64,000 bases of DNA, taken from Candidatus Moraniibacteriota bacterium. Its GTDB lineage: Bacteria; Patescibacteriota; Minisyncoccia; Moranbacterales; UBA1568. The notes beneath the pieces were generated by a model, which searched no databases, was not told the DNA's origin, and worked only from the letters and a program-made list of their open reading frames with translations. Within the stretch, counting starts at the first letter, position 1. Each line of letters starts with the position of its first letter. The stretch is taken from contig JBPOIB010000001.1 in NCBI GenBank assembly GCA_052034935.1, positions 172,173 through 236,172 on the forward strand, written 5' to 3'. Below, piece by piece: positions 2 to 41,404 of this stretch. Position numbers and translations under genes: made by a program.

Positions 2-682
2 ATCAAAGTCGAGTTTGACCGCTCCGTGAAGGATTTTTACATCGATTTCCAGTTCGATCCACTAGTCGAAGTGGTCTATCAAAATAATCCGGAGAAAACT
101 GTTTTCGAGATCCTGCCAAAGGACCCGCTTCCTGCCGGAAAAGAGTATCAGCTCCGTATCCGTTCCCGTTTCCGAAGCGCTACCGACGACCAGTATCAGT
201 CGATCGCGGCGACCACATTCACGACCTTGCCGCCGAAGCCAGTAGCAGTGAGTCGCGACTACGCCACCCGGATCGAAGAGGCGAAGCGCTTTACGCGTGC
301 GAGGAAGTCGGAAGGGAAATACATTGATGTGAATACGGCTGCCCAGGTTATGACGCTTTTTGAGAATGGTCGCGCTGTCGATGCCTATATGATTTCCTCC
401 GGCAAGCCGGGGATGGATACCCCGAAGGGTGAATTTGCTATTCACAATCAGGCCCTCCGGCCTTGGTCGAAGAAATACAGTCTCTATATGCCGCATTGGC
501 AGGCCATCACACCGGACGGGCTGTACGGCATCCATGAGTTACCGGAATGGCCGGGCGGTTACAAGGAGGGCGCGAATCATCTCGGCACGCCGGTTTCGCA
601 CGGCTGTATCCGGCTTGGTGTCGGATCGGCGAAGCGCGTGTACGAATGGTCGACCGTCGGTACACCGGTGGTGATATACTAG
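2..682 (+). CDS. L,D-transpeptidase (YkuD domain), 5'-partial at window edge
   Basis: C-terminal catalytic motif ...HGCIRLG... with upstream conserved YkuD region; frame is open back to nt 2, so the gene probably starts upstream of the window (the track starts at GTG 26). Confidence 0.75.
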   Translation: MKVEFDRSVKDFYIDFQFDPLVEVVYQNNPEKTVFEILPKDPLPAGKEYQLRIRSRFRSATDDQYQSIAATTFTTLPPKPVAVSRDYATRIEEAKRFTRARKSEGKYIDVNTAAQVMTLFENGRAVDAYMISSGKPGMDTPKGEFAIHNQALRPWSKKYSLYMPHWQAITPDGLYGIHELPEWPGGYKEGANHLGTPVSHGCIRLGVGSAKRVYEWSTVGTPVVIY

Positions 683-699
683 GGCCAAAGAAAAGACCT

Positions 700-1170
700 A
701 TGCAACGGAAACTCTTCACGCTCGTGTTCATCGTCAAAGGAAAAAATATTCTCCTCGGGATGAAGAAGCGCGGCTTCGGTGCTGGTCGCTGGAACGGCTT
801 CGGCGGCAAAGTCGAGCCAGGCGAATCGATCGATGAAGCGGCGAGGCGCGAAACGAAAGAAGAATGCGGCGTCGGAATTACAGCGATGGAAGAGGTGGGT
901 ATCCATGAATTCAGATTCGCCGCGAAGCCTGATGAGGTGCTCGAAGTACATGTCTTTCGTGTCAGTGAGTATAAATGGGAGCCGGTTGAGACGGAAGAGA
1001 TGCGGCCGCAGTGGTTTTCGGTTACCGAGATTCCGTACGACAACATGTGGCCGGATGACCGGTTGTGGATTCCTACGTTCCTCGCTGGAAAGAAGTTTCG
1101 GACGAGTTTCCTTTTTGGCGAAGAGGACACAGTTCTCGAACAAGAGATCCGGATCCTGGAAACGTTGTAG
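700..1170 (+). CDS. NUDIX hydrolase, MTH1/NUDT1-like 8-oxo-dGTP diphosphatase
   Basis: ATG at 700 within ORF 547..1170; Nudix box GGKVEPGESIDEAARRETKEECG; LGMKKRGFGAGRWNGFGGKV and EMRPQWF...MWPDD are collinear with human MTH1 as I recall it. Confidence 0.8.
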   Translation: MQRKLFTLVFIVKGKNILLGMKKRGFGAGRWNGFGGKVEPGESIDEAARRETKEECGVGITAMEEVGIHEFRFAAKPDEVLEVHVFRVSEYKWEPVETEEMRPQWFSVTEIPYDNMWPDDRLWIPTFLAGKKFRTSFLFGEEDTVLEQEIRILETL

Positions 1171-3571: not shown

Positions 3572-5881
3572 CTATCGTCCGGTATGGAAGTCAGCGGGTG
3601 GCACTTCGAAAATCGTATAATACGGCGACCCCCAGACCACTCGGAGGTTATGACCGACAAAATCAGTGAAGGCTTCGATTTTCGCATTGAAAGTGGGACG
3701 AGTACCTTGTTCGAGTTCCTCATTGTAGCCGCGTGCGTAGAGTACATAGCGAATGTCGAAATCACGCAGTCTTGAGAGTGTAAGGGCGTCATTACGTTCG
3801 CGGTGGATGCAGTTGAACGAATCGAGATGGGGGTCCATCACCGCCCGGCGGTCATTATCGGTAATGCCGTACCAGAGTTGAGAACTGGTGAGGAGAATGC
3901 GGCTTTCCGGGTCCTGATTCAGGATTTTGATAGCTCCGCCGTAACCGGCAATTGATTGATCGAGGAATTCATCAGCTGAGAGTTCATTTCCAGCAAAGAG
4001 GACTTGCGCCCGTTCGCCTTTCAGCTTCATCTGGACCAGAGTATTTCCGATGAGGCCGAGCGCGAGCACAACACAGAAATATATAAACAGGATACGGGAA
4101 AAGCGGACTTTTTCGCGAAGCCCGACGACAAGCAGGATGAGGAGTGCCAGCCCCGGGTAGGCGTACCAGAAGACTCCTTCACCGAGTACGGCCCAGAGCG
4201 AAAAATAGCCGAAGGCAAACAGCGCGATCAGTGGTCCTGGTTGCTCGTGCCATGGCGGCTTCGGAGAAATAGCTCCATTTTGACGGATGGCGAAGTACCA
4301 AGGAAGTAGTGCGAGAAAAAGAAAGCCAATTTCAGTCGCGAACGATCCAATATGAACGTTCATAGTCGTGTCCCAAGGAAGTTTGAGCCAGCGTTCGATT
4401 GGGCCGCGTGCTGGAACAAAGCGCGAGAAATCCTCGGCGGCCCCGGTGGCTAAGCAGGAATTTCTCCAAACGTAAGTAGTGACTTCGTTCCGGAGCTTTT
4501 GATATTCGTCAGTTGACTCACTTGAAATGAGGGCCTCGAACGAATTAATCGCCGAAGAGACCGGATGTGTCGTAAGTCCGTAGCTGATCCAAGGGAGTAG
4601 TGGTATCAGGCCAATAATAATCATCATGATGAGCGATCGCCACGTAATGTCGAAAGCCCTTCGTTGATGAGCGATGAGGGTAGCCGTGATAGCGAGCGGG
4701 GCGATCAGGAAGAGAGCGGTGAGCTTGATGATGACGGCGAAAGAAAATAATCCGAGTGCGCTGTGCCAGAAAATCAACTTTTTCTCAGCGACCGAGCGGA
4801 TGAGCGACCATAACACCATCGCCGAGACGGCAAAGAGGAGGGGGTCAGGCTTTACCTCACGAATGGCGAGTGCTGCTCCGATCGGGAGCGAGAGAAGGAT
4901 GATGGCGGAAAGGGCGCCGGTGCGACGGCTAAAGACGGCTTGTCCGAAGCCGTAGAGAATGAACATACCGAAAAAGAGACAGTAGGTACCAAGACTCATC
5001 GCGAGGAGGAGGGTGTCATCACCAGATGCGATTCTAATCGTGGCGGCGAGAATCTCGAACGGGTAAGGACGTCCGCCGGCGATGATCTCGCCGCGCTCTG
5101 ATACGATATGCACCCGGTCCATGTAATGGGTCATGTCGTCATAACCGGTTGGGTGCGGCTTGATCGATTGTGTCAGTACGAAGGCGACAAGGAAGCATCC
5201 GAGCGCAAGAAGGTATGGTTCCGCTGACCGGAAGTGCGGCTGCCACTTACCGGTTACGTCGAACATTTGGCGAAAAAGTGCCGTCACTGCCCGGTGCTCC
5301 CAGATGACTAGGAGAGAGAAGGTAATCCAGATTATCCAGCCAGGAAGACCACCGAGCATTCCGAGTCCGAGGAGGAGGGTGCTCCAGAGAAACATTCCCG
5401 CGATAATCCTTAGTGCTATGCCATAGACCGAATGTTGGTCTTGGATCGGGTGGCGCAAGACGGTTCGGAACAAGAGATTGCCAGCACCGAAGAAAGCGAT
5501 AGTCAGGAAAACATACGTCAGAATGACGGATCCAAATTTTGCAGCAAAGGAGAGATTGGCTGATGCCCACGATGCGAGTGGGATGAGTGGACCGTCGGCG
5601 AAGATGAGTCCGCGGAGGAAAGCCTGGGTATTGAAGATAGTAGCGCTCAAGATAAAGACAACGGGGAGAATGAAGACTGGTCTGAAGTGAAAACTCAAAG
5701 AGGGATGCTTCCGGGAGTACTGGAAGCAGAAAAAGAGCACCAGGGCGACGAGGCTGCTGGCGAGGAAAAAAGGAAGGCCAATCGAGAGTTGATTGTCCGG
5801 CAGCATGACGAAATGATGCCTGAACCAGACCGCGATGACCGCGCCCGAAAAACCGAGGAGGAGAATATGAAGAATGGGCAT
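3572..5881 (-). CDS. large polytopic membrane protein, putative GT-C (ArnT/PMT-like) glycosyltransferase with C-terminal soluble domain
   Basis: About 770 aa with more than 12 predicted TM helices followed by a roughly 180-aa soluble C-terminal domain; start chosen at MPILH (5881), but the ORF extends to 6001. Confidence 0.5.
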   Translation of the reverse strand: MPILHILLLGFSGAVIAVWFRHHFVMLPDNQLSIGLPFFLASSLVALVLFFCFQYSRKHPSLSFHFRPVFILPVVFILSATIFNTQAFLRGLIFADGPLIPLASWASANLSFAAKFGSVILTYVFLTIAFFGAGNLLFRTVLRHPIQDQHSVYGIALRIIAGMFLWSTLLLGLGMLGGLPGWIIWITFSLLVIWEHRAVTALFRQMFDVTGKWQPHFRSAEPYLLALGCFLVAFVLTQSIKPHPTGYDDMTHYMDRVHIVSERGEIIAGGRPYPFEILAATIRIASGDDTLLLAMSLGTYCLFFGMFILYGFGQAVFSRRTGALSAIILLSLPIGAALAIREVKPDPLLFAVSAMVLWSLIRSVAEKKLIFWHSALGLFSFAVIIKLTALFLIAPLAITATLIAHQRRAFDITWRSLIMMIIIGLIPLLPWISYGLTTHPVSSAINSFEALISSESTDEYQKLRNEVTTYVWRNSCLATGAAEDFSRFVPARGPIERWLKLPWDTTMNVHIGSFATEIGFLFLALLPWYFAIRQNGAISPKPPWHEQPGPLIALFAFGYFSLWAVLGEGVFWYAYPGLALLILLVVGLREKVRFSRILFIYFCVVLALGLIGNTLVQMKLKGERAQVLFAGNELSADEFLDQSIAGYGGAIKILNQDPESRILLTSSQLWYGITDNDRRAVMDPHLDSFNCIHRERNDALTLSRLRDFDIRYVLYARGYNEELEQGTRPTFNAKIEAFTDFVGHNLRVVWGSPYYTIFEVPPADFHTGR

Positions 5882-33052: not shown

Positions 33053-33316
33053 ATGCTCAAAACGGTTTTTTTGAAGCTGATTCGGCTCTATCAGGCGACT
33101 TTTTCCCTGAATCACGGCCTCCTGGGGCTCATCATCGCCGAACGGTACTGCCGTTTTCATCCGACCTGCTCAGAGTACGCCTACGAAGCGATTTCCCGCT
33201 TTGGTGTATTCCGAGGAGGGTGGATGGGGTGCAAACGCATCCTACGCTGCCAGCCATGGTCCGAAGGCGGGTATGACCCAGTCATGCCACCGAAGGAAAA
33301 GCAAACTGAACGTTAA
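33053..33316 (+). CDS. yidD: membrane protein insertion efficiency factor YidD
   Basis: [12 protein letters not shown]...[16 protein letters not shown] is the YidD signature; 87 aa. Confidence 0.85.
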
Positions 33317-33319
33317 CAA

Positions 33320-33625
33320 GTGAATCGGAGAACAAACTTGCAGATCGTACAAGTCGAACGTCTCGCCCACGTCCGTGGCCGCCTCATCGGCGACCGCATC
33401 GAGGGCCGCAGTGTGCTCGAACCGGAACTGATCCGGCAAAAGGGCAGTTCCACAACGGCAGTTCCTGCCGCGAATGATGCCGGCAAGACGGCAGTCCGTT
33501 GCCGCCAGATCATCCGTGGCGGCCGGCCGAAGACCGTTCCGCTCACCCGGGCGAAGACCAAGTTCCAGTCCCACGAGCGCAAGTGCCAGTGCTGCAATCA
33601 TCGCCTGGCCTGCGCGACCGCATGA
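33320..33625 (+). CDS. small Cys-motif protein (C-x27-C-x2-C-x5-C), hypothetical
   Basis: GTG start 4 nt after the yidD stop; Cys pattern C61...C89-x2-C92-x5-C98. Confidence 0.25.
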   Translation: MNRRTNLQIVQVERLAHVRGRLIGDRIEGRSVLEPELIRQKGSSTTAVPAANDAGKTAVRCRQIIRGGRPKTVPLTRAKTKFQSHERKCQCCNHRLACATA

Positions 33626-33663
33626 CGTGAAGTCCAACCACTCAACGTTTCAAGGAGAACTCT

Positions 33664-33867
33664 ATGCTGTTCCAGAGGTCTGCGTTGGCGCCGGATGACC
33701 CGAAGCGTCGTCATGAGCCGGTGGTGATCTGCCAGGGCTACACGACGGAGGGCAATCAGCCTCAGCGCGTGCCCCTCTCCACGGCCCATGTGCGGGCCAT
33801 GCGATGTCCGGAGCGCTGCGTCGGCTGCCTGAGCCAGGGGCAGTGCAACCCGCCGCTTCGCCACTGA
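33664..33867 (+). CDS. small Cys-motif protein (C-x28-C-x2-C-x5-C), hypothetical
   Basis: AAGGAG RBS 7 nt before the ATG; Cys pattern C23...C52-x2-C55-x5-C61. Confidence 0.35.
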   Translation: MLFQRSALAPDDPKRRHEPVVICQGYTTEGNQPQRVPLSTAHVRAMRCPERCVGCLSQGQCNPPLRH

Positions 33868-34389
33868 CGTTTCGCCACCCAGGCGCCGTAAGTCGTCTTT
33901 CAACCACGAGGGGATAGCCAACGCGCTGTCCCCTCGAATCATATCCAGGAGAAAGCCATGCTTGGATTGCGCATTGAAGCAGCCCTGGTGTTCGAAGTGA
34001 TTGCCCTTATCGAATATCGTTCAGATTTCCCGCCCAACCCCGTCCTCCACACGTCCAATCTACATACATCGCCGCAACTGCTGCTTGGGAATCCGTTCGA
34101 GGATTCACTCTTCGAATCAGCTGATGTGGCGGCTGATGTCCAGCGCTTTCGGCTCGGCCGCATCCGCTTGCCACTCGTTCCCGAGAGGCGCTACGGTCCG
34201 CCGTCCTATCGGCGCTGGCCTTCCGCATCAACCAATCGTCGCGAGCGAGGGAACCGTTGCCAGCGCTGAGCATCGCCCCTGTACGTCGCATTCCGTTTGC
34301 GCTAGGATAGGGCTGTTTCAGAAGTCCTGCTCATTCCCAAAACAAGATTTTCTCGGAGACATATCACCCCGCAACTACCGGAGTCATCC

Positions 34390-34698
34390 ATGAATGCCGA
34401 ACTTTCGGTGTCCACCCATCCCATCTTCCCAGGCACCCGCGTACCTTGTCCCTCAGCAGGGAATCACCTCCTGCTCAGTGCTGCCGCCCTGCGCGAGCGC
34501 TCGGCCGCCTGTGTTACCTGCGGCGTTCGGGGACCGTGCCGGACGCTGTATGCGCCCGAAGCTGCCGCTCCCGACTCGTGCTGGATCGCCATGGCAGTGA
34601 CGCGTGACCAGTCCAGGTGTGCTGACTGCTCCGTCCGCGAACCGTGCCATGACCTCGTCGCCGAGCTTGCGGCTATCGCCCGCCGCGCGGGGCATTGA
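34390..34698 (+). CDS. small protein with two tandem WhiB-like Cys motifs (CxxCxVRxPC), hypothetical
   Basis: GGAG RBS; C41VTC44GVRGPC50 and C77ADC80SVREPC86; TAGGAT motif upstream. Confidence 0.4.
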   Translation: MNAELSVSTHPIFPGTRVPCPSAGNHLLLSAAALRERSAACVTCGVRGPCRTLYAPEAAAPDSCWIAMAVTRDQSRCADCSVREPCHDLVAELAAIARRAGH

Positions 34699-34773
34699 AC
34701 CCCGGTGCGAAAGAAACTCGCGTCCGCCCAAAGGAACGCTTTCCTGAGGGCTTTTTTCATACCCAAATTAGAG

Positions 34774-34800
34774 TTAGCACTCACACTTGACGAGTGCTAA
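34774..34800 (+). promoter_or_regulatory. CIRCE operator (HrcA binding site)
   Basis: Perfect TTAGCACTC-N9-GAGTGCTAA inverted repeat. Confidence 0.9.
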
Positions 34801-34816
34801 AACTGGATTTATACTG
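34787..34816 (+). promoter_or_regulatory. sigma-70-like promoter TTGACG-18-TATACT overlapping CIRCE
   Basis: -35 within the CIRCE right arm, -10 TATACT 25 nt before the hrcA ATG. Confidence 0.6.
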
Positions 34817-34840
34817 GAGACACAGAACGGTGAAATCGTT

Positions 34841-35596
34841 ATGAACATGAATGAACGACAACGCGAAGTGCTCTCGGCTGTGGTCGAGCTGTACACGAAA
34901 ACGGCGCTCCCGGTCGGCTCCGAAGCCCTGCTCGAACGGCATCATTTTCCGGTGAGCTCGGCGACACTCAGGAACGACATGCTCGCCCTCGAGGAAATGG
35001 GCTATCTCTATCAGCCCCATACTTCCGCGGGGCGCATCCCAACTGATGCCGGCTACCGTTTCTATGTCGAGGAGATGATGGGCGACAAGCCGCTCTCGAA
35101 GAAAGACCAGCTTCACCTTCAAGAAGAGTTTTTGAAGCTCCAAGCGAAGCATAACCGCACCGTCCGCACCACCGCCCGTCTTCTCTCGGCCCTCTCGGGC
35201 AATCTGGGGGTTTCGGGAATGGTCGGCAAAGATGAAATCTATGATTTCGGGATGAAGTCCCTCATGGAGAGCCCGGAATTCCGCGAAATGGATGATCTCT
35301 GTCGGCTTGTTGAGACCCTCGATACGCTCGATGAGAAGATTGATGTCCTCGTCGCTGGACTGAAAGATGGTGAGACACGCATCTTCATCGGCGAAGAGAA
35401 TCCGGTCCGCGGTATCGAGAACTGTGCGATGGTGGTGTCACCCTACCGCGATGAGAATGGGGATCGCGGCATGCTCGCCATCATCGGTCCGAAGCGGATG
35501 GAATACGCCAAGAACAAGTCGCTCATCGAATCGATGCGCCGCCTCCTCGGATCGTCCCTCGTCATCGTGATCGTCACTCAGGCACCGTTATGGTAA
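34841..35596 (+). CDS. hrcA: heat-inducible transcription repressor HrcA
   Basis: N-terminal winged helix ERQREVLSAVVELYTKTALPVGSEAL; CIRCE immediately upstream; ATG 34841 lies within ORF 34787..35596. Confidence 0.9.
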   Translation: MNMNERQREVLSAVVELYTKTALPVGSEALLERHHFPVSSATLRNDMLALEEMGYLYQPHTSAGRIPTDAGYRFYVEEMMGDKPLSKKDQLHLQEEFLKLQAKHNRTVRTTARLLSALSGNLGVSGMVGKDEIYDFGMKSLMESPEFREMDDLCRLVETLDTLDEKIDVLVAGLKDGETRIFIGEENPVRGIENCAMVVSPYRDENGDRGMLAIIGPKRMEYAKNKSLIESMRRLLGSSLVIVIVTQAPLW

Positions 35597-35598
35597 CG

Positions 35599-35730
35599 AT
35601 GGCATCAGAGCCGGAACAGGAAGCCGGTGAGCCGGAAGAAACCATTGATGATAGCCGGCCGCTCACCGAAGAAGAACGTCAGAAACTCTTCGAAGCCGCC
35701 AAAAGCGCCATGACCCGAACCTCATAATAA
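35599..35730 (+). CDS. small acidic protein, hypothetical
   Basis: 43-aa ORF (MASEPEQEAGEPEE...) in the 140-nt gap between hrcA and the grpE fusion; below the ORF-track cutoff. Confidence 0.2.
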
Positions 35731-35738
35731 AAAACCCT

Positions 35739-36653
35739 ATGACCCAAGAAAAACAATCGAGCCTGGTCAAGTACGAGCAGTTCCAGCTTAGCCAGAAGGC
35801 GGTAATCTATTCGAAGACGACGAAGAAGTTCCTTCTCTTGAAGGATGCTGAGCCGGAGTCCGAATACGTCGCGAAGTATGGTCTCTGGGACTTGCCGGGC
35901 GGGCGGCTCGAGAAGGGCGAAGCGCTGCCATCCTCCTTCGAGCGTGAGCTTCGCGAGGAGATTGGTGATTTAAAATACGAGCTTCGCGATATCGTGTACG
36001 CCACGACAGTCTCAATTCCCTTGGACGATCCAGAGAGCCCGAACCGCGTTCGCCTCATCTCTCTCGCGACGACCGAAGACGATACCGTCACGCTTTCCGA
36101 CGAGCACACCGAAGCCGCCTGGAAGACGTTCGAAGAAATCGACGCGGATGCCGATTGCGGCGAGTGGCTGAAGCGAGCGGTCACGGCAGCACTGACGACG
36201 CTTCGGGCAGAGGAGGGTGCCAATGACACCCTTCGCATCCTCGCTGACTTCGAGAACTACAAGAAGCGAGTGAAGAACGATGAACGCGAGCTCTACGGTC
36301 ACCTGACGGCCCAAATCGTCAATGAGCTCATCCCAGTCCTCGACAATTTCCACGCCGCGACGGGTCATGTCCCGGCCGATGCGGCGGGCAGCCCCTGGGT
36401 CACCGGCATCACCTATATCGAGAAGCAGTTCGAGGATGTACTCGCCAATTACGGGGTAACGCCGCTCGACGTCAAACCCGGCGATGCCTTCGACCCGACT
36501 CGCCACGAAGCCCTCGATCACAAGGCCGCAGCAATGAAAGAAGGAGAGCTGGAGGGGGAGAAAAAACTCGTTATCGAGAAAGTCGTCCAGAAAGGCTATC
36601 TCATCAAAGACAAGCTCGTCCGCCCCGCCAAAGTGATCGTGACCGAAGCTTAA
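35739..36653 (+). CDS. grpE: NUDIX hydrolase-GrpE fusion protein (nucleotide exchange factor GrpE with N-terminal NUDIX domain)
   Basis: N-terminus has Nudix box GGRLEKGEALPSSFERELREEIGD; C-terminal 170 aa LRILADFENYKKRVKNDERE...KGYLIKDKLVRPAKVIV is canonical GrpE. Confidence 0.8.
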   Translation: MTQEKQSSLVKYEQFQLSQKAVIYSKTTKKFLLLKDAEPESEYVAKYGLWDLPGGRLEKGEALPSSFERELREEIGDLKYELRDIVYATTVSIPLDDPESPNRVRLISLATTEDDTVTLSDEHTEAAWKTFEEIDADADCGEWLKRAVTAALTTLRAEEGANDTLRILADFENYKKRVKNDERELYGHLTAQIVNELIPVLDNFHAATGHVPADAAGSPWVTGITYIEKQFEDVLANYGVTPLDVKPGDAFDPTRHEALDHKAAAMKEGELEGEKKLVIEKVVQKGYLIKDKLVRPAKVIVTEA

Positions 36654-36706: not shown

Positions 36707-37120
36707 ATGACACGCCATCTTATTCCGTTCCCGACGAATGATCTCAGTCGTTTCTTCGACCCTGAGCTCTTCGCTTCGGGCGAATTCTTCCCGGCACTCG
36801 ACATCTATCAGGACAAGGATAATGTCGTCGCTGAGCTCGCGCTCCCGGGTATCGATCCGGCCAAGGTCGACATCACCATCGAAAATGATGTCCTGACCGT
36901 CTCCGGGTCCACCGAGAGCAAGGAGGAAGTGAAGCGCGAGGACTACTACCGCAAGGAGGTCCGCACCGGCAGCTTCTCCCGCTCCGTCGTCCTCCCGATG
37001 GCCGTGAAGGGGAATGACACCCAAGCCGAGTATGACAAGGGTGTTCTCACCATCACGATGCCGAAGGAGGAATCCGTGAAGCCGAAGAAGATCGCCGTCC
37101 AGATTAAGGACGCGAAGTAA
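36707..37120 (+). CDS. Hsp20/alpha-crystallin family small heat shock protein
   Basis: AGGAGG RBS; ALDIYQDKDNVVAELALPG...DVLTVSG...GVLTITMPK alpha-crystallin domain. Confidence 0.9.
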   Translation: MTRHLIPFPTNDLSRFFDPELFASGEFFPALDIYQDKDNVVAELALPGIDPAKVDITIENDVLTVSGSTESKEEVKREDYYRKEVRTGSFSRSVVLPMAVKGNDTQAEYDKGVLTITMPKEESVKPKKIAVQIKDAK

Positions 37121-37224: not shown

Positions 37225-39177
37225 ATGTCAAAGATACTCGGTATTGACCTCGGGACGACCAACTCGGCGATGTCTATCGTCGAAGGCGGCAGCCCTAGCG
37301 TCATCGAAAACAAGGAAGGCAATCGCACCACGCCCTCGATGGTCGCGATGTCGAAGACCAATGAGCGCCTCGTCGGCCTCCTCGCCAAACGTCAGTCCGT
37401 CACCAACCCGGAGAACACGCTCTTTTCCGTGAAGCGCCTCATCGGGCGCCGGTTCGAGGACGACGAGGTGCAGCGTGATATGAAGACGCTGCCCTACAAA
37501 GTCGTGAAGAGCGGCGAGGGGACGAAAGTCATCATGGGCGGCAAGGAATACACCCCGCAGGAAATTTCTGCCATGGTGCTCCAGAAACTGAAAGCCGATG
37601 CCGAAGAGAAGCTCGGCGAGAAGATCACCGATGCGGTCATCACCGTCCCAGCCTACTTCGACGATGCCCAGCGCAAGGCGACGATGGAAGCCGGTGCGAT
37701 CGCGGGCCTCAATGTCCGCCGCATCATCAATGAGCCGACCGCGGCGGCCCTCGCCTATGGTTTCAACAAGAAGAAAGACGAAAAGATCGCGGTCTATGAC
37801 CTCGGCGGCGGTACGTTCGACATCTCCATCCTGGAAGTCTCCGAAGACACGGTCGAAGTGAAGTCGACCAATGGCGATACGCATCTCGGCGGCGACGACT
37901 TCGACCAGCGCGTCATCCACTGGATCCTCGACGAGTTCAAGAAGCAGGAAGGCCTCGACCTCTCCAAGGATCCGCTCGCGCTCCAGCGCATCAAGGAAGC
38001 GGCAGAGAAGGCGAAGATCGAGCTCTCGACTGCTCAGGAATCCGAAATCAATCAGCCGTTCATCACGAGCGGAGCGGACGGTCCGAAGCACCTCGTCATG
38101 AAGCTCACCCGCGCCAAATTGGAAGAGCTCGTCGGTGACCTCGTCACAGGAACGCTCGAGCCGGTGAAGAAGGCGCTCGCCGATGCGAAGCTCTCCGTCT
38201 CTGACATCAATGAAGTCGTCTTGGTCGGAGGAATGACGCGCATGCCGCTCGTCCTCGCGACCGTCGAGAAATTCTTCGGCAAGAAACCAAATATCAGCGT
38301 GAACCCGGATGAGGTCGTCGCGATCGGCGCGGCCATCCAGGGTGGTGTGCTCGAGGGGAGCGTGAAAGACGTTCTGCTTCTCGATGTGACGCCGCTCACC
38401 TTCGGGATCGAAACGCTCGGTGGTGTCCGCACCCCGCTCATCGACCGCAACACGACTGTCCCAGTCTCAAAGAGTCAGACCTTCTCGACCGCCGCTGACA
38501 ATCAGCCACAAGTCGAAATCCATGTGCTCCAGGGCGAGCGTGAGATGGCTGCTGACAACAAGTCGCTCGGCCGCTTCGTCCTCGATGGTATCCCACCAGC
38601 GCCGCGCGGCATCCCGCAAATCGAAGTCAATTTCGACATCGATGCGTCGGGTATCCTCTCGGTGACGGCCAAGGACAAGGCGTCCGGCAAGACCCAGAGT
38701 ATCCGCATCGAATCGTCCACCGGACTTTCCAAGGACGAGATCGAGCGCATGAAGAAAGATGCCGAGCTCCACGCCGAGGAAGACAAGCGCAAGAAAGAGC
38801 TCATCGAAGCGCGCAATATGGCCGACACGCTTTCCTACACGACCGAGAAAGCGATGAAGGACGCGGGCGACAAGCTCACGGCCGAAGAGAAGAAGCCGGT
38901 CGAGGAAGCCATCGCCCAATTGGCCAATGTGAAGAATGGCGACGACCTCGAACAGATCAAGCAGAAAACCGAAGCGCTCTCGCAGGCTGCGCAGAAGATC
39001 GGCGAGAAGCTCTACAAGGCCGCCCAAGAAGCGCAGGCTGCCGCTCAGCCAGCCGCAGGTGCCCAGTCTGGTACCGAAGCTCAAACGGGCTCAACTGCTG
39101 AAGCTCCCAAGGATGCAGAGGTAGAAGAAGCGCCGAAAGCCGCAGGTACTGAGCCTGTCGAAGGTGACAAGAAGTAA
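37225..39177 (+). CDS. dnaK: molecular chaperone DnaK
   Basis: [30 protein letters not shown] motifs; 650 aa. Confidence 0.95.
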
Positions 39178-39238
39178 GGAGTAGAATAGGAGCAGGGTTT
39201 CGGCCCTGCTTCTCTTCTTATCCAGTATCCACACGCTT

Positions 39239-40201
39239 ATGCTCGAACGTATCAAAACCATCTTCTACCGGCCGGAGTTCTTCCGGGACCAGCGCTTCAC
39301 GACGAATCAGGCGCTCAGCTTCTACTCGTTCGTCATCCTCGCCTACGTCATCCTCACGCTCTTCACGATGCTGCCGGGAGCGGCGGCTGCCCTCCAGTCG
39401 ATGCGTTCGGGCGAGTGGCAGACGCAAAAGGGGATCGTCGCCAGCCTGTATCCCGAGAATCTGCAGGTCACCGTGAGCCAAGGTGCGGTCTCGACCAATC
39501 AGGCCGGTCCGAGCGTCATCGCCGTCCCGTCGGCCTGGAAGCTCGCGGCCCATCCCGAGCCGGCCTTTCCGATCGACAATCTCGTCGTGATCGATACGAG
39601 CCGGCCGGTGACGCCGGCGACGCTCGAAGACGCGAAGACCGTCGTCCAGATCGGTCAGCACGAAATTGGTTTCCGCAATCCGGAACGCGGCGAGACGCGT
39701 ATCTTCAACCTGAAGGAAGCGAAATTCGACCGGAGTTTCACCCTGACCGCACCGATGTTCCGGGAGGGGATTGAGAAGGGGTTCAAAGCGCTCCAGATCG
39801 GTTTCTTCGCGCTCCTGTTTGTCGTCCCGGCAGTGCTCTACGTTGCCCTCTGGATCGGCTACCTCCTCTATAGCCTCTTCGGCGCGCTCGTCGTCTGGGT
39901 CGCGGCCAATGTCCGGGGGCAGACACTCCGCTACGGTCAGGCCTACCGCTCGGCGCTCTACCTCCTCGCCGGCCCACTCGCGCTCAGCTTCCTCATGTCG
40001 CTCGGCAATGTCCACATCCCGTTTGTGTTCACCCTCGTCCTCTTCGGCATGGCGTTCCTGAATTTCTCAGGAGTTCAGACGAAAGACTCTGAGCCCGTCG
40101 ATGAGCCAAAAGTAGAAAAGCTCCCCGAACCGGTAAAGATTGCTACTGCAGAAGCTCCTAAGGTTGCGGAAAAGCCGGTTGAATCGAATGAAAGTAAGTA
40201 A
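39239..40201 (+). CDS. hypothetical polytopic membrane protein
   Basis: 320-aa ORF, N-terminal TM, periplasmic-like middle, 3-4 C-terminal TM helices, Lys/Glu/Pro-rich tail. Confidence 0.55.
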   Translation: MLERIKTIFYRPEFFRDQRFTTNQALSFYSFVILAYVILTLFTMLPGAAAALQSMRSGEWQTQKGIVASLYPENLQVTVSQGAVSTNQAGPSVIAVPSAWKLAAHPEPAFPIDNLVVIDTSRPVTPATLEDAKTVVQIGQHEIGFRNPERGETRIFNLKEAKFDRSFTLTAPMFREGIEKGFKALQIGFFALLFVVPAVLYVALWIGYLLYSLFGALVVWVAANVRGQTLRYGQAYRSALYLLAGPLALSFLMSLGNVHIPFVFTLVLFGMAFLNFSGVQTKDSEPVDEPKVEKLPEPVKIATAEAPKVAEKPVESNESK

Positions 40202-40243
40202 ACAGGCGGGCCCTTTCGGGCCCGCTTTGTTACCGAGTGTAGT

Positions 40244-40825
40244 ATGAATATATCCTTCTTAGAAAAAATTCCTTATAGAAAAGAGGTATTTTTACTTACC
40301 TACGGGTTTATTCTTACTGGTATTATTGGCGCGATCATAACGTTCGGACTACAGTCTGCATCGTGGAGATATCAAAATAATTCTGCAAAGCTAGAGAAAG
40401 AGCTTAATGTAGCCTCTGATGTTTTTGAACAAATTAGTACAGTAACCGACAAGCGCATCTATAGAATGGATAAGCTTGACCGTTGGCTGGTAGATGGAAC
40501 AGACGATGTAATGATTAATAATCTGATGCGGGAGTATAGGGATGTTCTTTACGAATGGAATGACTCATACAATAAAAATAAGGCTCTCGTAAATTTATAC
40601 TTTGGTACTGAAGTGTCTGCCCGTTTCGACTACATTCATTTCTTCTTTAAACAAGTAGGAAAAGACTTAGAGACCCAATATTACCTATCTTCAGAGAATC
40701 GTAATCAAGAACAGTTAGTTCAAATTGGAAATAGAATTGGTGATTTGAATAACATCGCACTTGAAATCAACGAGGGGATGATAAAGAAAATCCAAGCGCA
40801 GTCAGTCGGATCTTTTCAAAAATAA
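40244..40825 (+). CDS. hypothetical membrane-anchored protein (AT-rich island gene 1)
   Basis: 193 aa, one N-terminal TM; about 33% GC against about 60% in flanking genes. Confidence 0.5.
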   Translation: MNISFLEKIPYRKEVFLLTYGFILTGIIGAIITFGLQSASWRYQNNSAKLEKELNVASDVFEQISTVTDKRIYRMDKLDRWLVDGTDDVMINNLMREYRDVLYEWNDSYNKNKALVNLYFGTEVSARFDYIHFFFKQVGKDLETQYYLSSENRNQEQLVQIGNRIGDLNNIALEINEGMIKKIQAQSVGSFQK

Positions 40826-40871
40826 AAGTATAGCTGTAAACGCATACAATCACCACTACTCAGAAAAATAT

Positions 40872-41396
40872 ATGTATCAAATTCGTATCCTCGCTGATGA
40901 TGGGTTAATAAAAAAGGAATATCGGACTGAACTTGAAGATATATTTCGGAAATCAGGATTGAATTTTGAGTATGTAGAATGTGATACACACGCAAAGGGT
41001 GGTGTAATTTGGTTTGCAACTGGATTAATAATTGCAGCTGTTGGAATGACTGCTCAAGGATTTTTCTCCGCTGTGGGTGAAGATCTTTATAAAAAACTCA
41101 AAGAGTTAATTAAGGACTCTTTAAAAAATCCACCGGAAAATACTCCGGGCATTGGAGTAGCTTATATATCCTTTATAAACGACGGTATTGAATTCTATTT
41201 TGAGTTTAGTGAGTTCATGATGGATAACTACGACGAGGCATCTTCTAGAATACTTGCAGATAATGATAGAATCGCGTCTGAGTTTAGGATAATTTCAAAG
41301 AAAGAGTTAGAGAACATACACGGGGAATTCACGAGTGTTACTTTAAGGTTCGATGAAAATAGTCGGCGATGGATTGTAGCGCACTACAATTTATAA
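40872..41396 (+). CDS. hypothetical protein (AT-rich island gene 2)
   Basis: 174 aa, one internal hydrophobic segment; about 35% GC. Confidence 0.5.
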   Translation: MYQIRILADDGLIKKEYRTELEDIFRKSGLNFEYVECDTHAKGGVIWFATGLIIAAVGMTAQGFFSAVGEDLYKKLKELIKDSLKNPPENTPGIGVAYISFINDGIEFYFEFSEFMMDNYDEASSRILADNDRIASEFRIISKKELENIHGEFTSVTLRFDENSRRWIVAHYNL

Positions 41397-41404
41397 GTAA
41401 GCAT

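Follow-up and report, generated by a model that had tools for sequence, protein, structure and literature searches.

A GrpE protein carrying an N-terminal Nudix domain in the heat-shock operon of Candidatus Moraniibacteriota

Background

GrpE is normally a single-purpose cofactor of the chaperone DnaK, and in the structure 1DKG its beta-domain and bundle contact the DnaK ATPase domain. Here we examine a grpE gene of a different build, located in a stretch of 64,000 nucleotides from contig JBPOIB010000001.1 of an uncultivated Candidatus Moraniibacteriota bacterium (the whole stretch is hereafter called the window, and positions are counted from its first letter). The frame at 35739..36653 on the plus strand joins a Nudix hydrolase domain to the N-terminal side of GrpE.

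In Escherichia coli GrpE, a conserved IIM motif of the N-terminal tail sits in DnaK's substrate-binding groove as a pseudo-substrate (PMC12915176), and the role of the tail is debated (PMC12987570 versus PMC12915176). Among GrpE proteins with a further module at the N-terminus, the closest precedent is All4144 of Anabaena, which has an extra N-terminal helix-turn-helix region (bioRxiv 10.1101/2025.04.14.648684); that module differs from the one described here in being DNA-binding and not an enzyme, in its unrelated sequence and in its occurrence in another phylum. The full-text literature that we searched, including a 2025 review of GrpE-like factors, contains no mention of a Nudix-GrpE protein. 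Diadenosine tetraphosphate (Ap4A), in turn, rises on heat shock; cross-linking has tied this molecule to DnaK, GroEL and ClpB, and Nudix enzymes break it down (PMC10148737).

Compared with canonical GrpE (E. coli, PDB 1DKG; Pfam PF01025), the protein described here retains the C-terminal 150 amino acids with a stalk helix, bundle and beta-domain like those of 1dkg_B, and its gene lies between hrcA and dnaK behind a CIRCE operator (controlling inverted repeat of chaperone expression), as in many Gram-positive-type operons. It differs in having neither the disordered acidic tail nor the hydrophobic pseudo-substrate motif, in taking the start of its stalk from a Nudix helix and in carrying an enzyme domain. 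Its N-terminal half shares with minimal Nudix enzymes of the MutT-like, NudI, NudG and diadenosine polyphosphate (ApnA) hydrolase kinds (3grn, 6dt3, 3gwy, 1vc8, 3i7u) a single-domain alpha/beta/alpha fold of about 140 amino acids (template modelling (TM) scores of 0.65–0.81, normalised to the target) and a complete Nudix box with the W-x-[LF]-P-G-G lead-in typical of MutT-like proteins. However, identity to these enzymes is only 20–26%, the C-terminal helix of the fusion extends into GrpE, and the fusion family has residues of its own, namely SQK in strand 1, LSxEHxE[YF]xW and W143-L-K145.

Results

Two domains in one open frame

The gene is a single uninterrupted frame of 304 amino acids plus a stop codon in the list of open reading frames (ORFs). 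A Pfam scan placed NUDIX (PF00293) at residues 21–137 with 45.5 bits (gathering cut-off 21.1; E 9.6e-12) and GrpE (PF01025) at residues 156–302 with 115.3 bits (cut-off 25.8; E 2.9e-33), the latter match spanning profile positions 26–164 of 165. Both domains that the first-pass annotation had read from the translation, and had proposed to look for with these two profiles, are thereby recovered above cut-off, the Nudix region included. The parts of the gene are as follows.

35739..36653, plus strand: Nudix-GrpE fusion gene (ORF, Pfam, homologues, predicted structure)
35739..35763, plus strand: first 8 codons, MTQEKQSS, common to the plain grpE of the related locus L002 (MTQEVKQSA); DNA homology ends at 35763
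35764..36233, plus strand: Nudix module, 470 nucleotides, residues 9–165, standing where L002 has a 132-nucleotide acidic-tail segment
35799..36149, plus strand: Pfam NUDIX domain, residues 21–137 (45.5 bits; predicted local distance difference test score (pLDDT) 90–97; Foldseek matches 3grn, 1vc8, 6dt3, 3i7u)
35901..35969, plus strand: Nudix box GRLEKGEALPSSFERELREEIGD, residues 55–77 (from the translation; 93–100% conserved in 100 fusion proteins)
36162..36365, plus strand: continuous predicted helix, residues 142–209 (DSSP on the AlphaFold model, pLDDT about 79–96)
36204..36644, plus strand: Pfam GrpE domain, residues 156–302 (115.3 bits; Foldseek matches 1dkg_B, 9a81_A, 9bls_C; 87% identity to the plain GrpE P0035)

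The fusion missed the cut-offs of the NCBIfam GrpE equivalogs (best 83.4 bits versus 137, PRK14140), models that were built on full-length GrpE from cultivated lineages; its relatives are still named GrpE by NCBI. By profile, fold and gene context the fusion is a member of the GrpE family, and by profile, motif and fold its N-terminal half is a member of the Nudix superfamily, of no named subfamily.

An AlphaFold model built on 97 fusion sequences has a mean pLDDT of 85.8 and a predicted TM score (pTM) of 0.56. It comprises a Nudix fold at residues 16–136 (an alpha/beta/alpha sandwich, pLDDT 90–97), a helix at 142–209, a second helix at 219–237 and beta-domain strands at 240–303. Only 8 low-confidence residues lie ahead of the Nudix fold, a disordered acidic tail is absent, and the final Nudix helix passes unbroken into the GrpE stalk and then into the first bundle helix. 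Among 433 Foldseek matches in the PDB at E ≤ 0.001, the top 50 were nearly all Nudix enzymes, the other three being GrpE chains. The N-terminal half matched the MutT-related 3grn, the diadenosine hexaphosphate (Ap6A) hydrolase 1vc8, NudI 6dt3, the putative CTP pyrophosphohydrolase 3gwy, the Ap4A hydrolase 3i7u, DR1025 and YmfB, and the C-terminal half matched 1dkg_B (TM score 0.82, normalised to the target), 9a81_A and 9bls_C. As modelled, the Nudix enzyme is held rigidly at the tip of the stalk. The 68-residue helix measures about 100 Å, so that the Nudix domain would lie at the far end of GrpE from the bundle and beta-domain, the parts that in 1DKG hold the DnaK ATPase domain.

An old, lineage-wide fusion

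A search of 5.8 billion protein clusters yielded 313 relatives, and domains were counted on the best 120; both Pfam domains are present in 100 of these, which range in identity from 85% to 36%. The fused clusters come from NCBI, JGI, ENA and Logan assemblies, and every one with a taxon name is a “nucleotide exchange factor GrpE” of Candidatus Moraniibacteriota or of the Patescibacteria group; among the best 120 clusters the sole named exception to these taxa is one plain GrpE labelled Undibacterium. The architecture is therefore undescribed rather than unseen: it is visible in database domain tables under the GrpE name. The first-pass annotation had known of no such architecture, and rarity and the absence of a describing paper bear this out in part, although the protein already stands in public databases as the GrpE of Moraniibacteriota metagenome-assembled genomes (MAGs).

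In a scan of one genome per Genome Taxonomy Database (GTDB) species, about 20 species representatives carry the fusion, and a fusion of only 38% identity (P0119, locus L083) lies in the same corA-yidD-hrcA-fusion-dnaK neighbourhood. The fusion is old and lineage-wide in Candidatus Moraniibacteriota. Viral contigs had distant plain GrpE genes only and no fusion.

The possibility that an assembly error or a frameshift welded a separate Nudix gene to grpE was considered, since some relatives have a free Nudix gene directly upstream of grpE and in one MAG of low coverage the fusion is split into two overlapping frames. Against it stand the unbroken frame, an identical protein assembled independently from another sequencing run (L001), 100 fused clusters from different samples and assemblers, a junction that is a continuous, confidently predicted helix with no linker, and the retention in the fusion of the start codon and first 8 codons of plain grpE. 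We regard the probability of an artefact as negligible and rejected it on the open frame, the independent assembly and the roughly 100 fused clusters; the survey of related genomes that had been proposed thus removes the earlier worry. The split copy (L030, 3992–4853, MAG coverage about 5x; frames 3992–4372 and 4353–4853) most likely reflects a frameshift made in sequencing or a gene that has recently become a pseudogene.

Several fusion-carrying third-party annotation MAGs (L003–L005, L008, L011, L012, L016 and L032) are titled Bdellovibrionales, Micavibrio, Candidatus Fimivivens or Bathyarchaeia archaeon. These organism labels look wrong, because the DnaK falls inside the Moraniibacteriota clade wherever it could be tested: near-complete DnaK sequences of L003, L004, L005, L008, L012 and L032 lie within that clade, which was monophyletic in 100 of 100 bootstraps.

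A sister operon with plain GrpE

The locus L002 (GCA_041730415.1) has the same order as the window, corA-yidD-...-hrcA-small ORF-grpE-hsp20-dnaK-DUF1189, and a DnaK of 91.5% identity, yet its GrpE is a plain protein of 187 amino acids (P0035), which is 87% identical to the fusion over the GrpE half. DNA homology extends from window 34734–35763 (L002 1742–2764, 83.6%), breaks, and resumes at window 36234 (L002 2897, 87.6%), the operon being otherwise collinear at 84–90% DNA identity. In between, the window has 470 nucleotides (35764–36233) in place of 132 nucleotides of L002 (2765–2896) that encode the acidic tail, so that P0035, with the same operon and the same first 8 codons, differs in having a 44-amino-acid acidic tail with AEIIEE where the window has a Nudix module of 157 amino acids. 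The start codon and MTQE(V)KQS are common to both genes before the modules diverge, and the fusion gene thus appears to have retained the original grpE start. In the model, the Nudix module is not stacked onto an ordinary GrpE but stands in for the acidic tail and forms the initial turns of the stalk helix, corresponding to about the first 25 profile positions.

The AEIIEE of the L002 tail resembles, by analogy, the IIM pseudo-substrate motif of E. coli; the fused form has no such motif and would be predicted to lack tail-driven release of substrate from DnaK. The plain tails share SEWQxKAEEYL, possibly a remnant of the Nudix helix (EWLK...EYL), or else a sequence of single and independent origin that was spread by recombination. 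With this motif, the change between the window and L002 could have been either a loss or a gain.

Cassette-like turnover of the N-terminal module

In a DnaK tree, all members of the two deepest Moraniibacteriota branches have the fusion and all outgroups have plain GrpE; within the clade fused and plain states interleave, with a minimum of 6–9 state changes over 100 bootstrap trees. The tree of the GrpE half interleaves in the same way, and about half of the sampled species have the fusion. Closely related operons may carry very different Nudix domains, as the following pairwise identities illustrate.

L004 and L005: DnaK 98%, GrpE core 96%, Nudix 38%
L017 and L031: DnaK 95%, GrpE core 83%, Nudix 44%
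Window and L003: DnaK 93%, GrpE core 83%, Nudix 48%

DNA identity between L004 and L005 is about 88% in the stretch of the GrpE core and dnaK and only 41–57% over the Nudix part, with a sharp break at the EEYLNDLKRLQADF codons. Between the window and L085 the most divergent stretch of the operon is 35790–36090, with 67–75% identity versus 85–97% elsewhere, and synonymous divergence (dS) is 2.0 in the Nudix part versus 0.57 in the GrpE part.

The Nudix domain alone, searched against 1.84 billion representative proteins, gave 35 matches at E ≤ 1e-10, in which fusions ranked first, followed by free proteins of about 150–167 amino acids. Linkage of the two domains goes beyond the fusion: the nearest free Nudix homologues are also encoded between hrcA and Nudix-grpE. 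This holds for both traceable free proteins (P0123 and P0121), whose neighbouring fusion carries a different Nudix type, and L086 has a free Nudix gene in the same layout that resembles the fused domain of P0021. GrpE proteins with two Nudix domains also occur (P0095, 449 amino acids, and L014). None of the plain-GrpE loci has this Nudix type within 4 kb, and the Nudix domain and the acidic tail are therefore alternatives and not independent features.

The module thus behaves as an exchangeable cassette, the position being taken by another Nudix paralogue, two Nudix domains, a free Nudix gene beside the fusion, or an acidic tail. The simplest reading starts from an old operon in which two Nudix paralogues stood ahead of grpE or were fused to it; these modules would since have been lost, retained or recombined repeatedly, with breakpoints falling within the conserved codons of the stalk and at the start of the gene.

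Two Moranbacteria species have a GrpE frame with a different N-terminal domain of about 150 amino acids and a GSxG...DxDF motif (L037 3497–4438 and L041 3156–4148). The two domains are 65% identical to each other and matched Pfam NTP_transf_2 and DUF2204 weakly and below threshold; P0330 is one further fusion of such a nucleotidyltransferase-like domain to GrpE. Free homologues of about 165 amino acids are common in Patescibacteria beside adenylosuccinate lyase, dCMP deaminase and HD/HIT hydrolases. That this domain is a regular neighbour of grpE was rejected, the free homologues sitting beside these nucleotide-metabolism genes and not beside grpE.

Conservation and affinities of the Nudix half

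The box in the window reads G55-RLEKG-E61-ALPSSFE-R69-E70-L-R-E73-E74-I-G76, which is the full GX5EX7REUXEEXG; it had been called complete from the translation, and every catalytic box residue is indeed present. The last hydrophobic consensus position is Asp here, as in 30 of the 100 fusions, and is variable in the rest. Within these 100 proteins conservation amounts to 99% for G55, 96% for E61, 100% for R69, 93% for E70, 99% for E73, 100% for E74 and 95% for G76, and further conserved family positions are Q19-K20, W50, S120, E122 (100%), H123, W128 and W143-L-K145, among which H123 and W128 too are near-invariant. Relative to the 85%-identical L085, the ratio of non-synonymous to synonymous divergence (dN/dS) is 0.06 in the GrpE part and 0.07 in the Nudix part, the latter value being approximate with dS near saturation. 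Both domains are thus intact and evolve under purifying selection. Because box and family positions are conserved and dN/dS is low, the Nudix half agrees with an active enzyme and not with a domain that has decayed or is only structural.

The best sequence matches of the Nudix half were the MutT, NudG and NudI models, all below threshold; a PDB sequence search gave a best E of only about 1e-4, and PADLOC returned only a generic Nudix match to PDC-S07 (31 bits). Assignment to a named Nudix subfamily was dropped after the PDB, NCBIfam, specificity-position and PADLOC comparisons. As for the class of substrate, the sequence leans to (deoxy)nucleoside triphosphate ((d)NTP) pyrophosphohydrolases of the MutT, NudG and NudI type, and the predicted fold points to minimal MutT-like proteins and to hydrolases of Ap4A and Ap6A.

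The Nudix segment has an even GC content, so that base composition gave no sign of a foreign origin. A second, separate Nudix ORF of 207 amino acids lies at 547..1170 on the plus strand of the window and matched the MutT, NudG and “Nudix family hydrolase” models, all below threshold; the genome therefore holds at least one other Nudix enzyme.

The surrounding heat-shock operon

The gene order, all on the plus strand, is CIRCE, hrcA, a 45-amino-acid ORF, nudix-grpE, hsp20 and dnaK, with the following features around the fusion.

34774..34800, no strand: CIRCE operator (predicted HrcA binding site), perfect inverted repeat TTAGCACTC-N9-GAGTGCTAA (exact match; also scored as a hairpin)
34787..34815, plus strand: sigma-70-like promoter, TTGACG, 17-nucleotide spacer, TATACT (10/12 consensus; overlaps CIRCE)
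34841..35596, plus strand: hrcA, 251 amino acids (Pfam HrcA 80.1 bits, HrcA_DNA-bdg 22.6 bits; 251-amino-acid gene calls in relatives)
35590..35727, plus strand: 45-amino-acid ORF (called as a gene in three assemblies)
36707..37120, plus strand: hsp20, alpha-crystallin small heat-shock gene, 137 amino acids from this ATG (Pfam HSP20 72.9 bits; gene call)
37225..39177, plus strand: dnaK, 650 amino acids from the chosen start in an ORF of 654 (ORF; 91.5% identical to the DnaK of L002)
39188..39213, plus strand: terminator-like hairpin after dnaK (11-pair stem, 6 G-C; pattern match only)

The exact CIRCE match occurs once in the window versus 0.01 expected by chance. The promoter call is a consensus match only, and the number of such matches equals that in shuffled sequence. 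An alternative hrcA start is the upstream TTG at 34787. Naming of dnaK rests on its ORF and on the HSP70 Pfam match of the 91.5%-identical L002 homologue; DnaK homologues of 51–93% identity lie downstream of grpE in nearly all fetched loci, and the same grpE-dnaK heat-shock synteny was found in L002, L083, L085, L086 and L087. The context described in the first-pass annotation, a CIRCE-controlled hrcA-grpE-hsp20-dnaK operon, is thus upheld by the unique CIRCE, by hrcA and hsp20 passing Pfam and by dnaK through its homologue; its gene order stands, but its list omitted the conserved 45-amino-acid ORF between hrcA and the fusion.

The start of this small ORF overlaps the hrcA stop (ATGGTAA); the N-terminal half of the peptide is acidic and its C-terminal end, ...EEERQKLFEAAKSAMTRTS, is conserved. 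It is kept directly upstream of grpE in 7 related loci (L002, L003, L013, L025, L026, L027 and L085) as well as in L001, and these include genomes with fused and with plain GrpE. It had no Pfam family above cut-off in a Pfam scan, and probably represents a small component of the heat-shock operon that has gone undescribed. That it is a cut-off remnant of the original GrpE tail was rejected, as the plain-GrpE locus L002 has both the small ORF and a tail of its own.

Two other regions of the window stood out. The stretch of about 1.5 kb from yidD to CIRCE (33200..34780) has a GC content of 0.60–0.64 and only short overlapping ORFs on both strands, with small unannotated ORFs from gene callers and patchy conservation with L002. 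A low-GC island at 40200..41400 (0.35–0.38 versus about 0.58 around it) holds ORFs at 40244..40825 and 40872..41396, and the L002 sequence at this site, between DUF1189 and cutA, differs from that of the window.

Discussion

We favour, with reasonable though far from full confidence, the interpretation that the fusion is the working GrpE of the organism, encoded at its usual place between hrcA and dnaK, in which the tail has been replaced by a small, catalytically competent Nudix pyrophosphohydrolase that hydrolyses free stress nucleotides. The C-terminal half would perform ordinary ADP/ATP exchange on DnaK, and the Nudix half would be made one-for-one with GrpE under HrcA/CIRCE heat-shock control, the Nudix domains probably being paired by the parallel GrpE dimer. 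This half would hydrolyse free nucleoside polyphosphates that build up under stress, the likeliest substrates being (d)NTPs that are damaged or non-canonical, or else dinucleoside polyphosphates, for example Ap4A. It would not act on nucleotide inside DnaK, because some 70–100 Å would separate it from the face of GrpE by which the DnaK ATPase domain is opened. A side effect would be that the fusion is without the tail segment that serves in E. coli GrpE as a pseudo-substrate of the DnaK substrate-binding domain.

Several points weigh against this interpretation. The gene was inspected within the window, and a second grpE may lie elsewhere in the genome. Dimerisation, nucleotide exchange and hydrolase activity of the fusion are predictions, and the relative orientation of the two halves is only moderately confident in the model (pTM 0.56). 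The pairing of plain GrpE with a near-identical DnaK in L002 indicates that the Nudix domain is an accessory and that the fusion could merely reflect co-expression, and the existence of free copies of the same Nudix type indicates that tethering is not required for Nudix activity. Every NCBIfam Nudix equivalog scored far below its cut-off (MutT, NudG and NudI at 22–32 bits versus cut-offs of 95–245). A Tyr about 16–18 residues after the box reportedly marks ApnA hydrolases and a Pro about 15–16 residues after it ADP-ribose hydrolases; these positions are not conserved in the family, where residues 92–95 are variable, with Tyr in 21 of 97 sequences at 93 and Pro in 26 of 97 at 94. ApnA activity may still be compatible with the predicted fold, which is similar to that of the Ap4A and Ap6A hydrolases 3i7u and 1vc8.

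An alternative with a closer tie to the chaperone is that the Nudix domain acts directly on the nucleotide cycle of DnaK, for instance by destroying expelled ADP or bound Ap4A or ATP, and so makes exchange one-directional in an energy-poor cell. In its favour, an exchange factor and a nucleotide pyrophosphatase have stayed paired throughout a whole lineage of phylum level, and linkage persists where Nudix and grpE are separate genes; a second, unrelated nucleotide-handling fold (nucleotidyltransferase-like, below threshold) is fused at the same place in L037 and L041, and Ap4A has been cross-linked to DnaK (PMC10148737). However, the Nudix domain sits at the N-terminal end of the 68-residue helix, opposite the DnaK-contacting beta-domain and bundle (1DKG), a DnaK of 91.5% identity works beside plain GrpE in L002, and Nudix paralogues of only 38% identity interchange on a GrpE of 96% identity, which speaks against a closely tuned interface. 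That the domain acts directly on DnaK-bound nucleotide is unlikely in view of this distance from the contact surface, the plain GrpE of L002 and the interchangeable paralogues, and we consider the alternative as a whole improbable, if worth keeping in view. An action on DnaK's own ADP/ATP, as implied by the first-pass annotation, is not favoured for the same reasons: the position at the far end of the helix and a near-identical operon that lacks the domain.

Somewhat more doubtful is a non-catalytic role, in which the Nudix fold would cap or pair the stalk helices or serve as a ligand-tuned thermosensor or tail substitute. The module does replace the tail and stalk start, which form the thermosensor and pseudo-substrate region of E. 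coli GrpE (PMC12915176). Its evolution is much faster than that of the GrpE core, and non-catalytic Nudix domains exist elsewhere (NrtR, matched as 3gz8 by Foldseek). Yet sensor-type Nudix domains typically have degenerate boxes, whereas here all metal-binding and catalytic box residues are kept at 93–100% across sequences only 36% identical overall, and the free-standing paralogues of about 150 amino acids keep the same motifs. We give a similarly low weight to a neutral fusion with co-regulation only, in which the slot between hrcA and grpE collects stress accessory genes and read-through deletions occasionally weld one of them to grpE. The content of the slot does vary by genome (the 45-amino-acid ORF, free Nudix genes, Nudix type I or II), the DnaK tree requires no fewer than 6 switches between the fused and the plain state, and loss is tolerated, as in L002. 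Such a neutral origin sits poorly, however, with a fusion found in the two deepest Moraniibacteriota branches and roughly half of the sampled species, with a join that is always helix-to-helix at the same stalk position, and with the lack of any plain-GrpE locus that has this Nudix within 4 kb, Nudix and acidic tail being alternatives.

Going beyond hydrolysis of free stress nucleotides, the favoured reading, the stalk tip of GrpE could carry an undescribed nucleotide-based control layer on the DnaK machine, which would clear Ap4A or ADP at the chaperone (“exchange-and-destroy”) or remove AMP or ADP-ribose from DnaK or its clients. We think this improbable; if it were true, the cassette turnover, which takes in Nudix types I and II, double-Nudix forms, the acidic tail and, in L037 and L041, the nucleotidyltransferase-like domain, would reflect selection for different nucleotide targets.

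Conclusions

Judged from sequence, the Nudix-GrpE fusion is real and ancient, a protein of two functions that is specific to its lineage and shows unusual cassette dynamics. Nature offers closely matched operon variants with near-identical DnaK, comprising an acidic tail, Nudix I, Nudix II, two Nudix domains, or a free and a fused Nudix, and these amount to a ready-made experiment on the function of the GrpE N-terminus. If co-expression is all that the fusion provides, the gene is still a clear case of domains exchanged as cassettes within an essential housekeeping gene. If the Nudix half degrades Ap4A, it would lend mechanistic support to the 35-year-old observation that Ap4A binds DnaK. The fusion also connects the Hsp70 cycle, physically and in a new way, with nucleotide clean-up or alarmone turnover, in minimal-genome bacteria that rely on scavenging nucleotides.

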